In this document: in pieces, positions 1,319 through 6,403 of the stretch
Layout of the letters: every line of letters starts with the position of its first letter
How positions within the stretch are numbered: the first letter of the stretch is position 1
Source: Alphaproteobacteria bacterium
GTDB lineage: Bacteria > Pseudomonadota > Alphaproteobacteria > UBA828
Length of the DNA: 64,000 nucleotides
Reading direction: 5' to 3'
Assembly (NCBI GenBank): GCA_965214705.1
Contig: OZ243972.1
Span: 4,106,123-4,170,122, forward strand
The notes under the pieces: model-generated
Seen by the model: only the letters and a program-made list of their open reading frames with translations
Databases searched by the model: none
What the model was told of the DNA's origin: nothing
Made by a program: the position numbers and the translations under genes

Positions 1319-1569
1319 CGAAGCCGCATTGCGGGAGGGGGTATCCCGCTCCGGACTCATCGCCTGCGCGGCACTCAGTTTCGTGGAACGGCGGGCGAGG
1401 GAGCGATAGAAGCGCGTGCGTTCGCCGGAGCGGGGTTGTCCGGCGGCCCGCTTCGGACCTCCCGCCACAGACGGAGGGCCAGGTTGAACTCGCCATCGAC
1501 GAGCGCGACCGCGGCGCGCAGGGAAACGGACGCATGGCAGCGGTGGAGTGCGCAGGCCCTTTTATGAGG

Positions 1570-1896
1570 CTCTCGAAGTCAAGGTGCCGAGCCGGCTTCT
1601 TTATTGCATGCTATTCCCTCCCTCTCGTGGTCGATCGGATCGGCGCCTTGTCTTGCCAGGTCGAAACGCTTCTCTCATCGGTCGCGCGTCTATGCGCATA
1701 CCCACCTTTTATCCGGGCGGCTGCCGGCAAGGGTGTGCCGGAGCCGTCCCCCAATCCCGCTTGCTGCGGGCGCAGCGTTCCGGGGGCGGGGCCCTTCTGT
1801 CCGCCGGCGTATTTCAGCCCGGCCTTCGCTCGGCCACTCGCCACCCGGCCCAGCCCCGGCCGCGTCCGGCCGGGCTGGAACAGTGCGGTCTCGGTG
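1570..1896 (-). ncRNA. putative bridge/seek RNA region
   Basis: Contains GCGGACAG (matches target left flank plus core) and ATAAAAG (matches donor junction); position typical of IS1111-group RNAs; exact RNA ends unknown. Confidence 0.65.
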
Positions 1897-3084
1897 TCAG
1901 GCGAGCTTGGCGCCCGTCGGCACGAGACCGGTCTCGGAGAACCGCCAGAGCGCGATGAGCAGCTTGCGGGCGAGCGCCACGATCATCACTCGGCGAATGC
2001 GGCCCCGAGCTCCGGCGGTGCGTTCCTCGAACCACTTGCTGAGCACGCTGTCGGGTTGATGGCGCAACCAGCGCCACGCCATTTGGATGAGGAGGGCACG
2101 GATCCAGGCCGGACCGTCGCGGCCGATCCCCTGATCGCGTTGCACGTCCCCGCTTGCCCATGGGGTCGGCGTCAACCCGACCCAGCTCGCAAGCTCACGG
2201 CGGTTGTGGAAGTCGCGGTAGAAGATCTCGTGCTCAAGCAGCGTCGCGTCGTTCGCGCCGATCCCCTTCAGTTGGGTCAACGTCGCGATCTTGGCCGCCG
2301 CCTGCTCCTGGCTTCCATCGGGCGCGACCGGTGCCGGGACAGCCTCGCCTTGGCTGACAATCGCATCTCGCTCCACCTCGACTTCCGCGATCTGCCGCCG
2401 CACGAGCGACAACCGCTCCACAAGCCGAAGGATCTCCTGGCGAGCTCGCGGCGGAAACGGCGATCCATACGCGGTCACCGTGTCCGCGAACGTCTCCTCG
2501 AACCCTTTGGCGCGGGGGTCCAGGTCGAAGATGCCGTGCAGCTTCAGCAGCCCCTTGATCGAGTTGGTCAGCGAGGTCCGCTCCTTCACCAGGCGCCGGC
2601 GCTCGCGAAGCAGCCGCTTGCGATCCTCCTCCTCGACGCTCGGAACCCGCACACGGCTCAGCACTGCGGCGTCACCCCGGTCATGGGCGAGAAGGGCGCG
2701 CACCATCTTCTTCGCATCGATCCGATCCGTCTTGCGCTGCTTCGCCTTCCGGTTCACCAACAGGCTCGCCGGATCGAGCACCACCGTCTCGATGGACATC
2801 TCCCGCTCCAGCCAGCGCTCCAGCCAGAAGCCCTCGTAGCCCGCCTCGTAGCAGCACAGGACGCGCACCTCTCGGTCGAGAGCCCGTTCAGCCTTGGCCC
2901 GCTGATTCTCGATCAGATCCCTGAGGCCTTCCGTGTCCGCCGGCCCGAGCGAGTGCAGGCCGATCTTTTCGCTGGTCGGGCTCTTGACCCCAACCACCCA
3001 GCTCTTCTGACTAACCTCAATCGCCACGTACAGCGTGTCATGCTCCGCCTCGGCCGGCGCAGCGGTCTCGTTCAATGAGGACAT
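1897..3084 (-). CDS. IS110 family transposase/recombinase
   Basis: YVAIEVSQKSW, CYEAGYEG, KTDRIDA, LKGIG, GLTPTPWASG, VALARKLL; AGGAGA RBS. Confidence 0.95.
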   Translation of the reverse strand: MSSLNETAAPAEAEHDTLYVAIEVSQKSWVVGVKSPTSEKIGLHSLGPADTEGLRDLIENQRAKAERALDREVRVLCCYEAGYEGFWLERWLEREMSIETVVLDPASLLVNRKAKQRKTDRIDAKKMVRALLAHDRGDAAVLSRVRVPSVEEEDRKRLLRERRRLVKERTSLTNSIKGLLKLHGIFDLDPRAKGFEETFADTVTAYGSPFPPRARQEILRLVERLSLVRRQIAEVEVERDAIVSQGEAVPAPVAPDGSQEQAAAKIATLTQLKGIGANDATLLEHEIFYRDFHNRRELASWVGLTPTPWASGDVQRDQGIGRDGPAWIRALLIQMAWRWLRHQPDSVLSKWFEERTAGARGRIRRVMIVALARKLLIALWRFSETGLVPTGAKLA

Positions 3085-3658
3085 ATCGTGTCTCCTTATG
3101 AGGATTGGTCAGAACGGCACCGTAGCGCCGGTCACCGAGTCGCCTCATAGGATCTGTCCGCAAGGGCGCGCGCCCGGTCGCCCACGGCAAATTCGTTCTG
3201 ATTTTCGCCGCTGGCTGACGGCACTCAATCATGCTGTTGGTGACCGTCTAGACCCGCGCGTATTCGCTCATTTAGGGCGCGTGATTTTGGTGGCGATGTA
3301 GTTGACGGGTTTTTTGTCCGCACTGATTTGAGCGCTTGTTGCTGTTGGGCCTGTGGGGAAGTGGTCAGGCGCGGAGCGGCTGTCCACTTGTCCACAGGCC
3401 TTCGGCCGGTCGTGTGGAAGCTGGGCCAGGCGACCTGCCGATTTTGAGGTCCGGCGGGCTTGCCGTCGGCAGCGTTGCGCACCTGACATCGAGATCGCCG
3501 GGGGTAGACTCGGGCCGCTGAGAACGATGCGGCGCCGGCCCCGTTTGCCTGATCGCAACAGCCGACGCCGCACCCCCGAGCCATGCCAGACACGGCCCAG
3601 ATGCACAGTATTGTGCTGGATTCTGCGGGGGTCGAGCCCGTTCTCATCGACCGCCGCG

Positions 3659-4105
3659 ATGAGGAACTTCGGCCGCATCTTCAACTGCCCGCAGTGTCAT
3701 CGGCAGGTTGTTCTCTGCCCCCGCTGCGACCGCGGCAATCACTACTGCTCCAGGGAGTGCAGCGAGAGCGCGCGCCGAGAGTCGCAGCGTCTCGCCGGGC
3801 GGCGCTACCAGGACGGGCGCCCGGGGCGCCGCAAGCACGCGGAGCGCCAGAGACGCTATCGGGACCGGCAGCGCTGCAGGGCGCTTCAGGATGAGGGCTG
3901 CGGGCGGAAAGTGACGCATCACCCTTCGACGCGCGCGCACCGCCGTGTTGTCGTGCCACGGACGCCAGGGACGCGCCGCGGAACACGCCCCTTCGGGGAC
4001 GAGGAGCCCGCCGGGGGCTTCCGCTGCAGCATCTGCGGCCGCTTCTGCGCGGTGTTCGTTCATCCGGGCCTGCGCACGGTGCGCCACCCGGCACGAGAGG
4101 GGTGA
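3659..4105 (+). CDS. Cys-rich (Zn-finger-like) basic protein upstream of istA
   Basis: CPQC..CPRCDRGNHYCSREC and C-terminal CSICGRFC; stop abuts the istA ATG; start codon uncertain. Confidence 0.65.
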   Translation: MRNFGRIFNCPQCHRQVVLCPRCDRGNHYCSRECSESARRESQRLAGRRYQDGRPGRRKHAERQRRYRDRQRCRALQDEGCGRKVTHHPSTRAHRRVVVPRTPGTRRGTRPFGDEEPAGGFRCSICGRFCAVFVHPGLRTVRHPAREG

Positions 4106-4106
4106 G

Positions 4107-5612
4107 ATGACCACAGACAAGGAGACGAGAGCGGAGATCCTGCGGCTGTATCACGCCGAGAAGTGGAAGATCGGCACGATCGCGCGTCAGCTCGGCGTCC
4201 ATCACGGCACCGTGCGGCGCGCGATCAGGGACGCCGAGGAGCCTCGGCAGCACAAGCCGCGGCCCTCGAAGCTCGATCCCTTCATCCCCTTCATCCGCCA
4301 GACACTGAAGAAATACCCGACGCTGCCGGCCAGCCGGCTCTACGAGATGGTGTGCGGGCGCGGCTACCGGGGGAGCCAGAGCCACTTCCGTCGTGTGATC
4401 GCCTCCCTGCGGCCGAAGCCTGAAGCCGAGGCCTATCTGCGGCTGAAGACCCTTCCCGGCGAGCAGGCCCAGGTCGATTGGGCCCACTTCGGCAAGGTCA
4501 GGATCGGGCGCGCGGAGCGCCCGTTGATGGGCTTCGTGATGGTGCTCAGCTACTCGCGCCGCATCTTCCTGCGCTTCTACCTGGGCGCAGGGATGAACAA
4601 CTTCCTGCGCGGCCATATCGACGCCTTCGAGGCCTGGCAGGGGGTGCCGCGCGAGATCTGGTGCGACAACCTGAAGAGCGTCGTGCTCGAGCGCCGCGGG
4701 AGCGCTGTCCACTTCAATCCCCGGTACCTCGACTTCGCCGCCCACTACCGCGTGCTGGCACGGCCTGTCGCGATCGCGCGCGGCAACGAAAAAGGGCGCG
4801 TCGAGCGGGCCATACGCTATGTACGCGCCAGCTTCTTCGCCGCCCGGGAGTGGCGCGACATCGACGACCTCAACGCCCAGGCCGAGGCCTGGTGCGAGGG
4901 CATCGCCGCCGACCGCCCCTGGCCCGAGGATCGCTCCATCACCGTGCGCGAGGCCTTCGAGAAGGAACGCAGCTCTCTCATGGCCTTGCCCGGCGACCGC
5001 TTCCCCGTCGACGAACGGGTCGAGGTCGTCATCGGCAAGACGCCTTACGCCCGGTTCGATCTCAACGACTACAGCGTCCCCCACACCCATGCGCGGCACA
5101 CCCTTGTCGTGATCGCGACGCTGGACGAGGTCCGCATCCTCGACGGCACGGACGTCATTGCCACCCATCCGCGCAGCTTCGACAAGGGCGCCTGCATCGA
5201 GATCCCCGAGCACATCGCCGAGTTGGCCAAGAAAAAGCGTCACGCCCGGCGCCTTCGCGGGCAGGATCGTCTGATCAAGGCTGCGCCGAACAGCGAGCGC
5301 CTGCTCGACGAGGCCGCCAAACGCGGCGGCCATCTCGGCTCCATCGTCGCCGCCCTCTTGCGCCTCCTCGACGAGTATGGCGCCGCCGAGCTCGAGGCCG
5401 GCATCGACGAGGCGCTCAAGCGCGGCGTCCCCCATCCCAACGCCGTGCGCCTGAGCCTGACGAGGCGCCGCGAACAGCAGGACAAGCCGCCGCCCATCCC
5501 GGTCGATCTGCCCGACGATCCGAAGGTCCGCGACATCGCCGTCCGCGACCACGACCTGACGGATTACGACGGGCTGGCGGGCGAGGGCGAGGAGGAGGAC
5601 AGCGAAGAATGA
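4107..5612 (+). CDS. istA: IS21 transposase IstA
   Basis: N-terminal HTH, PGEQAQVDW, CDNLKS, KGRVERAIRY. Confidence 0.95.
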   Translation: MTTDKETRAEILRLYHAEKWKIGTIARQLGVHHGTVRRAIRDAEEPRQHKPRPSKLDPFIPFIRQTLKKYPTLPASRLYEMVCGRGYRGSQSHFRRVIASLRPKPEAEAYLRLKTLPGEQAQVDWAHFGKVRIGRAERPLMGFVMVLSYSRRIFLRFYLGAGMNNFLRGHIDAFEAWQGVPREIWCDNLKSVVLERRGSAVHFNPRYLDFAAHYRVLARPVAIARGNEKGRVERAIRYVRASFFAAREWRDIDDLNAQAEAWCEGIAADRPWPEDRSITVREAFEKERSSLMALPGDRFPVDERVEVVIGKTPYARFDLNDYSVPHTHARHTLVVIATLDEVRILDGTDVIATHPRSFDKGACIEIPEHIAELAKKKRHARRLRGQDRLIKAAPNSERLLDEAAKRGGHLGSIVAALLRLLDEYGAAELEAGIDEALKRGVPHPNAVRLSLTRRREQQDKPPPIPVDLPDDPKVRDIAVRDHDLTDYDGLAGEGEEEDSEE

Positions 5613-6403
5613 CCGACACCCTCAAGGACCGGGCCCGTGCCCTCGGCCTGCACGGCCTCATCGCACACTGGGACGAGGTCGGCGAGTGCGACTGGCTGAC
5701 CACGCTCATCGCCTGGGAAGAAGACGAGAGACGCGCCCGAAGCCTCAAGCGCCGCCTCGCCGATGCCCGGCTCGGTGACTTCAAGCCGCTCGCCGACTTC
5801 AACTGGGACTGGCCCCGCCGCTGCGACCGCATGGCCGTCGAGGACCTCATGGGCCTCGACTTCCTCAAGGAGGCCGCCAACGTCGTCCTGGTCGGCCCCA
5901 ACGGCGTCGGCAAATCGACGATCGCCGCCAATATCGCCCACCGCGCCGTCCTCGAGGGCCATACCGTGCGCTTCGCCACCGCTGCCAGCATGCTCGGCGA
6001 GCTCGCCGCCATCGACTCCGACACCCTGCTCCAGCGAAAGCTGCGCTTCTACGCCCGCCAGCAACTGCTGGTGATCGACGAGGTGGGATACCTCTCCTAC
6101 AGCAACCGCCACGCCGACCTGCTGTTCAGCATCGTCTCAAGCCGCACCCAGCAGAACTCCACGATTATCACGACCAACCGGCCGTTCGCCGAGTGGGGCG
6201 AGGCCTTCCCCAACGCCGCCTGCGTCGTGGCCCTGGTCGACCGCCTCGTCCACAACGCCGAGATCATCGCCATCGACGGCGATTCATACCGCCGCAAGGA
6301 GGCCGAGGAGCGCCAGAAGCAGCGCAGCACAGAGCGCCGCCGCCGGCGCCAGGAGAAAGGGCGCCGGCGATCCGGCGACCCGCAGGACACCGGGGACGAC
6401 TGA
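5609..6403 (+). CDS. istB: IS21 helper ATPase IstB
   Basis: GPNGVGKS Walker [10 protein letters not shown] Walker B, DRLVH; ATGA overlap with istA. Confidence 0.95.

Follow-up and report, generated by a model that had tools for sequence, protein, structure and literature searches.

The insertion sequence at positions 1559 to 3155 (minus strand) of a 64,000-nucleotide stretch of Alphaproteobacteria bacterium contig OZ243972.1 (assembly GCA_965214705.1), the window of this report, raises the question of which bases in its long non-coding end would guide it to a target and which would recognize its own ends. Read along the minus strand from 3155 to 1559, it is an IS110-family element with a mobile unit of 1595 bp (1597 nucleotides if the second copy of the AG core is counted). 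We consider it very likely that the element is intact and has an IS1111-like anatomy, in which a short left end is followed by the gene for a 395-amino-acid recombinase and by a 338-nucleotide right end predicted to encode a bridge (or seek) RNA. Three relatives in the same genome (one with a 97%-identical gene, the others with 80% and 65% DNA identity) carry different sequence islands at the same two positions of this RNA, and in each of them the islands match the relative's own flanks. A sequence-only reading of the window had proposed an RNA-guided system of the IS110 kind; the Pfam and NCBIfam matches of the protein and the covariation of the guides bear it out.

Ends, core and target site

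We searched the genome (7.92 Mb, three contigs) with the element and its flanks as the query. The search returned the element itself (A), one full copy at 93% identity (A2), two 5'-truncated copies at 93 to 94%, three copies at about 80% (family B), and about 20 matches at 65% (family C). The core AG is present at both the left and the right junction, without a target duplication. A pattern search of the genome found the uninterrupted site, with the left half, a single AG, and the right half, three times in the same repeat context, and it found the target 12-mer at four further places in unrelated contexts. The 29 bases left of the element abut the right-hand sequence elsewhere in the genome, with a two-base overlap. 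Because these empty sites contain one AG, the element ends and the target GCGGAC-AG-GGCC are exact, which confirms the target and the flanking AG copies reconstructed in the sequence-only reading. Because the overlap is two bases long, the mobile unit has the length given above, nothing was duplicated, and AG is the common core. Empty sites with a single AG were also found for the sister lineages A2 (one site) and B (two sites). The features that define the ends are as follows, all on the minus strand.

1559 to 3155, minus: whole insertion sequence, delimited by own-genome copies, empty sites, and the joint of 1558 to 3154 in contigs of two runs
3156 to 3161, minus: left target half GCGGAC, followed by core AG at 3155-3154 (junction reading and own-genome empty sites)
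3149 to 3153, minus: ATCCT, the five bases with which the left end begins and the "right donor" half-site; together with the core G, this stretch gives the -10-like hexamer of a predicted junction promoter
3142 to 3149, minus: left sub-terminal inverted repeat TATGAGGC, which covaries with the right copy in relatives
1563 to 1570, minus: right sub-terminal inverted repeat GCCUCAUA, followed by AA and core AG (1562-1559)
1549 to 1558, minus: right target half GGCCTGCGCA, preceded by core AG at 1560-1559 (junction reading and own-genome empty sites)

The inverted repeat is perfect and 8 bp long here, and it is 10 to 11 bp long in the relatives L042 and L034. Outside the repeats are terminal extensions of 6 bp (AGATCC) and 2 bp (AA) with the core assigned to the left, or of 4 and 4 bp if the core is counted once on each side. 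The left end is 71 nucleotides long and contains a ribosome-binding site, and the non-coding right end closes with AG.

Contigs from two public runs, belonging to two studies, connect 1558 directly to 3154 and leave out 1595 bases, with a two-base ambiguity. However, the two sides of this joint are only 29 and 18 bases long, and therefore the joints may represent paralogous empty copies of the host repeat. A loose end at 3131 in run X6 is the left end of a relative beside another flank and is no circle junction.

Guides in the right end

When the right ends of A, A2, and B were aligned, a nearly invariant scaffold became visible, broken by two short variable islands. The 3' island reads GCGGAC here, GGCAAG in A2, and CCTTC in B, in each case identical to the bases directly left of the element's own AG. 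The 5' island is the reverse complement of the right flank at eight of nine bases here, at 7 to 10 bases in B, and at just the four core-adjacent bases in A2. Family C follows the same guide layout. Together with AG, the 3' island here is GCGGACAG at 1804-1797, the stretch that the sequence-only reading had singled out as the left target guide; its position is exact, and it covaries with the flanks in relatives.

A wider scan of one genome per species yielded 80 loci, mostly in metagenome bins labelled Alphaproteobacteria, and we examined 61 of them, all but the 19 shortest partial matches. Both ends could be called with simple patterns in 32 of the 61 loci; the other 29 were truncated, ran off the contig, or had variant ends. 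These 32 loci, five own-genome copies, and three C copies made up 40 elements with 30 distinct guide pairs, 27 of which had at least 8 flank bases on both sides. In the 27 guide pairs, the left target guide matched its own flank at 4.30 of 6 bases, versus 1.79 after shuffling, and the right target guide, taken at the best of three registers, scored 6.93 versus 3.71. None of 20,000 shuffles was as good in either case. The tests are somewhat inflated by kinship among the elements, and the effect is large. Thus, comparison of guides and flanks across homologues, a check proposed with the earlier reading, came out positive for both target guides. The octamer GCGGACAG occurs 5 times on both strands of the window (128 kb), versus 5.58 expected, and arithmetic from the window count puts a chance match in one strand-specific 338-nucleotide stretch at about 0.015.

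The left donor guide was also clear. The motif ATAAAAG at 1712-1706, also located exactly by the earlier reading, equals the five bases before the core, plus the core, and this identity with the right end holds in 40 of 40 elements. Over the 30 lineages, four variants occur (AAA in 16, AAG in 9, ACA in 4, and ATA in 1). The donor spot reads AUAAAAG here and AUAAGAG in B, and the corresponding right ends are CATAAA and CATAAG. ATAAAAG occurs only twice in the window, at the right terminus of the element and in its tail, versus 0.75 occurrences expected. Taken singly, either motif would be an improbable find, and the decisive test is the comparison with relatives. The proposed order, with target-reading motifs ahead of the donor-reading motif, also holds.

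The right end contains a predicted RNA of about 195 nucleotides that is conserved and shows covariation. RNAalifold, applied to 31 non-identical sequences, placed both target guides in one internal loop that is closed by a long stem and divided by a small hairpin. With two hairpins added, the structure has 46 pairs, 25 of which changed on both sides; 83.0% of the cells are paired, versus 76.6% in shuffled alignments. Its covariation score is 0.236, versus 0.135 shuffled, and 0 of 500 shuffles scored as high. When the partners were slid as a control, at most 54% of the cells were paired. RNAalifold on 20 close relatives also suggested a long-range helix, which would enclose the donor-binding domain; the long RNA probably ends, on its 3' side, with this helix. 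No Rfam family matched this region, and three hits to unrelated families were at chance level (E = 0.66 to 0.95, far under the gathering scores). The parts of the predicted RNA, from 5' to 3', are as follows.

1850 to 1878, minus: hairpin H0, directly 3' of the stop codon (helices 1-2; 66% and 85% of cells paired, 8 pairs changed on both sides)
1831 to 1849, minus: 5' strand of the target-loop closing stem, pairing with 1794-1780 (helices 3-4; 97 to 99% paired, 5 pairs changed on both sides)
1821 to 1830, minus: right target guide island AGCGAAGGCC (in-genome alignment and flank covariation)
1806 to 1820, minus: small conserved hairpin separating the two target guides (helix 5; 100% paired, CG changed to UA in 4 sequences)
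1797 to 1804, minus: left target guide with core (GCGGAC plus AG), GCGGACAG, matching the left flank's top strand, so that pairing would be with the bottom strand
1780 to 1794, minus: 3' strand of the target-loop stem (helices 3-4)
1756 to 1770, minus: hairpin H3, CCCGC-AGCAA-GCGGG (helix 6; 94% paired)
1753 to 1758, minus: GGGAU(U), the candidate right donor guide; it can pair with ATCCT (one G-T wobble) and with the core G, and it covaries in part
1715 to 1752, minus: long hairpin H4 between the donor guides, with CCCT (1733-1730) in its loop (helices 7-8; 9 pairs changed on both sides)
1706 to 1712, minus: left donor guide with core (AUAAA plus AG), the same as the last bases of the right end (40/40 elements, four variants)
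1683 to 1698, minus: hairpin H5 beyond the donor guide (compensated changes seen by eye in L021, B1, L032, L033, and L034)
1655 to 1669, minus: 3' strand of the long-range helix, in which GCGUUUCG (CGUUUCG) pairs with GGAACG(C) at 1781-1775, and CCUGGC pairs with GCCGGG at 1849-1844

The right target guide was the point at which the sequence-only reading went wrong. It had assigned this role to CCCT, downstream of GCGGACAG, at an approximate location one base off the actual 1733-1730. That layout leaves the RNA without a right donor guide. The motif does complement AGGG, made up of the core and the two right-flank bases next to it, and its location is between the two confirmed guides. However, it is a 4-mer in the terminal loop of H4, whose sequence is free to vary in relatives and shows no link to their right flanks. 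The island that does follow the right flank in 27 lineages is 1830-1821, which lies 5' of GCGGACAG. We therefore regard a role of CCCT as the target guide as extremely improbable. Both target guides lie in the shared internal loop; the H4 loop that contains CCCT does not track targets.

The matches might also not be guides at all. The tail could have taken up pieces of target DNA by past recombination, with the protein alone setting the specificity, and the left target and left donor guides are indeed sense copies of core-adjacent DNA. However, the right target guide is antisense and hence no copy, every guide sits at a fixed position of a conserved and covarying structure, and proteins that are 97% identical use different sites that match their islands. 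In addition, dependence on RNA was demonstrated experimentally in relatives of the family (PMC11187229). We give such an origin of the matches hardly any weight.

A third alternative keeps the structure and places it in DNA, with the conserved tail working as a folded single strand or as protein-binding donor sites and not as a transcribed RNA. The comparative data do not separate RNA from single-stranded DNA, and the best helices contain few G-U pairs. However, some helix positions are paired only through G-U (5 GU, columns 55-134; 3 GU, columns 70-124), and these positions count against DNA because the opposite strand would have A-C. Moreover, in four IS1111-type elements, RNA from the equivalent region is recovered together with the purified transposase (PMC11187229). 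A tail that acts as DNA is very improbable.

The right donor guide had not been found in the sequence-only reading. By analogy with the target loop, it is expected 5' of H4 and antisense to the left end. GGGAU(U) at 1758-1753 lies there, and we think it is probably this guide. In the close clade, GGGAU(U/C) forms four Watson-Crick pairs and one G-T wobble with ATCCT, and its last base pairs with the core G. The comparison across lineages, partly read by eye, gave the following left ends and guides.

ATCCT with GGGAU, 24 guide-pair lineages of the close clade: four pairs and a wobble
ATCCT with AGGAU, L104: 5/5
ATCCC with GGGAU, L098 (ISRel9 family), L111, and L116: 5/5
ATGCT with GGCAU, L058: position 3 compensated
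ATGCT with AGCAU, L105 / L109: position 3 compensated
ATGCT with UGCAU, L112 / L114: position 3 compensated
ATGCT with GGGAU, L037: uncompensated
ATACC with GGUAU, family C: compensated
ATACC with GGGAU, L061 / L073: uncompensated
ATACC with GGCAA, L063: uncompensated
ATCCT with GGGUU, L106: one mismatch

In L099 (left end ATACT), the donor guide was not recognizable, and in L100, whose left end lacks the first A, four bases pair. Two points weigh against the candidate. Position 3 is compensated in only four of the eight lineages that vary there (G by C in 3 of 4, A by U in 1 of 4 that are readable). In addition, part of the guide is the 3' strand of the H3 stem, and the 5' strand of H3 is also altered in family C. 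This overlap confounds the covariation signal of the right donor guide, because pairing within H3 explains part of the change.

AUGAG at about 1678 was considered as a sense match to the left end and was dropped, because the sequence at this place differs in a sister copy whose left end is the same. In some elements, the right island ends with the core complement; here, the island stops short, and a conserved GGGCU comes next. In L023 / L102, a relative from another genome, a right-end segment of about 110 nucleotides that comprises the donor-binding part of the RNA with the donor guide occurs twice in tandem.

How readily the islands change was apparent from close relatives. Relative to A2, the coding sequence is identical at 1150 of 1188 positions (97%) and the hairpin between the guides at 16 of 16, and in the islands, only 2 of 10 and 2 of 6 positions are identical. 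A near-identical gene with such different guide islands has, by its sequence, been naturally reprogrammed. In near-identical elements of public contigs, the variant letters between 1799 and 1830 were confined to 1799-1804 and 1821-1830, the guide islands, and further variant letters were present at 1784, 1791, and 1795. Contigs of three runs have 1727-1831 swapped for a diverged sequence of equal length.

The family C copies (for example L097:233-1882, which is G000:C1:39432-41081) are inserted in the zinc-finger codons (..CRNRHCPTCQ..) of an IS91-like gene that is abundant in the genome. Unoccupied sites, about 70 in number, have the sequence ..CTCTTC-AA-CTCCTG.. with the core AA. In occupied sites, the left junction has AG and the right junction AA; the left guide has AG, and the right guide has the complement of AA, with the same polarity in L036 and L073. 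This core mismatch, always resolved one way, may reveal which strand lineage survives. At the family C site, one IS91-like copy (C1, minus strand, reverse-complement offset 1164483) reads ..TTC-AG-AA-CTCC.., with both cores kept and the element absent, a possible excision scar that differs from a simple reversal of insertion. At C3:532854-534521, there is a 5'-truncated 93% copy of the element studied here, and 74 bp past its right end lies a 118-bp left-end fragment of the same element. In this fragment, CCCCAAG stands directly before AG, which is close to an A2-type left guide.

Recombinase, expression and mobility

1897 to 3084, minus: recombinase gene, 395 amino acids, with Pfam and NCBIfam matches and the catalytic candidates E23, E80, D120, D123, and S311

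The recombinase matches PF01548, the N-terminal DEDD RuvC-like domain, at residues 22 to 182 (E = 2.4e-10) and PF02371 at residues 268 to 345 (E = 5.2e-13). It scores 199.5 bits, against a cut-off of 140, with the NCBIfam model NF033542 "IS110 family RNA-guided transposase." S311 lies within GLTPTPWASG, which matches the conserved G..P....SG motif of the C-terminal transposase domain. The first acidic residue, already noted as Glu (AIEVS) in the sequence-only reading, is E23, and it aligns with the Asp of IS4321 (IGIDLG). Glu occupies this position in every intact member examined, which included the own-genome lineages, about 30 loci, and ISRel9-family, Skermanella, and Bradyrhizobium elements. 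Glu is a trait of the clade and not a peculiarity of one copy.

In a BLASTP comparison with IS4321 of plasmid R751, the only named IS1111 comparator, residues 269 to 380 alone aligned, with 28% identity over 116 residues, and by this measure the protein clade is distinct from IS4321. A sequence search of solved structures returned only ISCro4, weakly (E = 0.0034) and through the C-terminal domain alone. The nearest named relatives are the ISRel9-family transposases, with 39% identity over 95% of the protein.

We suggest the following mechanism. In the target-binding loop, the right guide at 1830-1821 (antisense to the right flank), the small hairpin, and the left guide with AG at 1804-1797 (sense to the left flank) would follow one another. 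In the donor-binding domain, the probable right guide at 1758-1753 (antisense to the left end) would precede the long hairpin and the left guide with the core at 1712-1706 (sense to the right end). The left guides would pair with the bottom strands and the right guides with the top strands, with the core in common. The element may excise as a circle in which the right end, one AG, and the left end are joined, and this junction would create a promoter, TTGACT-N17-GATCCT. The resulting transcript would yield the recombinase and, through read-through and processing, the RNA. The RNA would then bring the circle junction and a GCGGAC-AG-GGCC site together, and the recombinase would swap strands across the two-base core without making a duplication.

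1577 to 1582, minus: TTGACT, a conserved -35-like box 17 nucleotides upstream of the junction-spanning hexamer (TTGAC in 20/20 close relatives)

The box is at a fixed distance from the right end in all 20 of these relatives. When the ends were joined in silico, the TTGAC-type -35 box, a spacer of 17 to 18 nucleotides, and GATCCT as the -10 box across the junction were the best hexamer pair in 21 of 32 distinct junctions. At the junction of the present copy, this pair scores 8/12 and is tied with another pair.

Several observations weigh against a working guide-RNA element. A single-sequence fold of the whole RNA is only slightly better than shuffles (z = -1.90). Between elements, the right target guide shifts its register to the core by 0, 1, or 2 bases, and the right guide of A2 has only its four-base match. 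No circle junction was present among the joints or loose ends in contigs of four public runs. Four further points also favor an alternative in which the copy is structurally whole and stranded in this host, immobile, with its guide RNA and recombinase silent or inactive. The element is single in the genome, even though at least three perfect copies of its target in the same repeat are empty and four further 12-mers are available. Between its right target guide and its own flank there is one mismatch. The minus strand within the integrated copy contains no promoter-like or terminator-like site. Finally, no public run recorded as RNA contains the stretch, and therefore we infer its transcription, its processing, and the ends of the RNA. 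However, the reading frame is open with all catalytic candidates kept, the two ends, the two inverted repeats, and the entire RNA scaffold are conserved, and proteins of 90 to 97% identity are present on many contigs. Moreover, few copies are normal where a promoter forms only in the circle. We consider a stranded copy a real though unlikely alternative to a mobile element. Of the earlier description as "intact, potentially reprogrammable," the first part stands at the level of sequence, where structural intactness is evident, and the second is backed by natural variants only.

The host repeat that carries the target begins near window position 3182 and extends on the minus strand down to about 530, with the element 27 bp inside its end. 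Copies of 95 to 99% identity are present at at least 3 other places, and the four candidate reading frames of the repeat had no Pfam match. The repeat adjoins a 54-bp repeat (6 copies, 98 to 100%) and the end of an IS21-family element. At 3945-6403 (plus strand), an IS21-family element encodes IstA (with HTH, rve, and Mu-transposase C-terminal domains) and an IstB-like frame. Its terminal 521 bp has three other copies in the genome that are 99.8 to 100% identical.

Known systems and what the element adds

Whether the element should be called IS1111-type, as in the sequence-only reading, depends on the definition. In the IS1111 group of Durrant et al., inverted repeats are 7 to 17 bp long and the bridge RNA is in the right end (PMC11208160); the 8-bp repeat found here falls within that range, and the element is a member under this definition. 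In the IS1111 family of Siddiquee et al., the repeats are usually 11 to 13 bp, a length not reached here, and the transposase has 330 to 350 residues related over their full length to that of IS1111 (PMC11187229). The present protein is longer and aligns with IS4321 only at its C terminus. The name thus fits the anatomy, with its long right end, sub-terminal repeat, and guide order, and does not fit the protein.

The element resembles the IS1111-type elements ISEc11, ISKpn4, ISPa11, and ISPst6 (PMC11187229) in its 3' non-coding region, sub-terminal repeats, and lack of target duplication. Terminal extensions of the IS1111 elements are published as 7 and 3 bp or as 6 and 3 bp. In the IS1111-type seekRNA, the top-strand match lies 5' of the bottom-strand match (PMC11187229); here, a long non-coding region with guides follows the gene, and the top-strand guide at 1830-1821 precedes the bottom-strand guide at 1804-1797. 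Shared with these elements are the guide order, natural reprogramming among close relatives, and a right-end -35 box suited to a junction promoter. A junction promoter is published for ISEc11 and ISEc21, with the arrangement predicted here (PMC11187229). Unlike these elements, the present one has a 395-residue protein, an 8-bp repeat, Glu for the first catalytic Asp, and an IS4321 alignment restricted to the C terminus. Donor guides were not described in the seekRNA paper (PMC11187229); in the present element, one such guide is clear and another probable.

IS621 uses its left guides for the bottom strand and its right guides for the top strand, with the core covered by the pairing; in its RNA, the target loop comes before the donor loop (PMC11208160). 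The predicted RNA is similar to those of IS621 and ISCro4 (PMC11208160; PDB 9t56) in having two loops, target then donor, with the same strand logic, and the proteins have the same two domains. AG on the element strand corresponds to CT on the other strand, which is the IS621 core. Unlike in IS621 and ISCro4, the RNA is encoded in the right and not the left end, the guide order within each loop is reversed, and the repeats are longer; the IS621 and ISCro4 proteins are very distant in sequence.

Closest are the ISRel9-family rhizobial elements, which have the same Glu and the same architecture, although they are only 39% identical and use other targets. In one of them, L098, four guides were read by eye: GGGAU with ATCCC, AUGUGAG with CATGTG plus AG, and two target guides that both match the flanks. 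For guides of ISRel9, a term look-up in PMC11187229 gave 0 occurrences of the name, and no wider literature search was made. The element is a clean further example of the known RNA-guided IS110/IS1111 kind and no new type of system.

A bolder view, which we regard as improbable, is that the ISRel9-like clade is a third separate lineage of bridge recombinases, with a Glu-first tetrad, about 380 to 400 residues, and an IS1111-like RNA placement, and possibly with two further properties, a donor-guide switch in H3 and directed guide rewriting. If this were so, the right donor guide, partly sequestered in H3, whose 5' strand mimics the left end, could work as a switch opened only by donor binding. 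Likewise, the wholesale replacement of guide islands while the gene stays 97% identical could point to directed rewriting and not to slow point mutation.

With this element, the RNA-guided recombinases described in 2024 gain a natural example that is well resolved and belongs to a protein clade distant from the two already studied. Three of its four guides are placed to the base, and the fourth is probable. For annotation, members of this clade have their right target guide upstream of the left one, where it is easily missed at a first pass. Within one genome, sister elements on one scaffold are programmed for four different sites, and these natural swap pairs provide material for testing how far the two islands set the specificity and whether Glu can substitute for Asp in the catalytic center.

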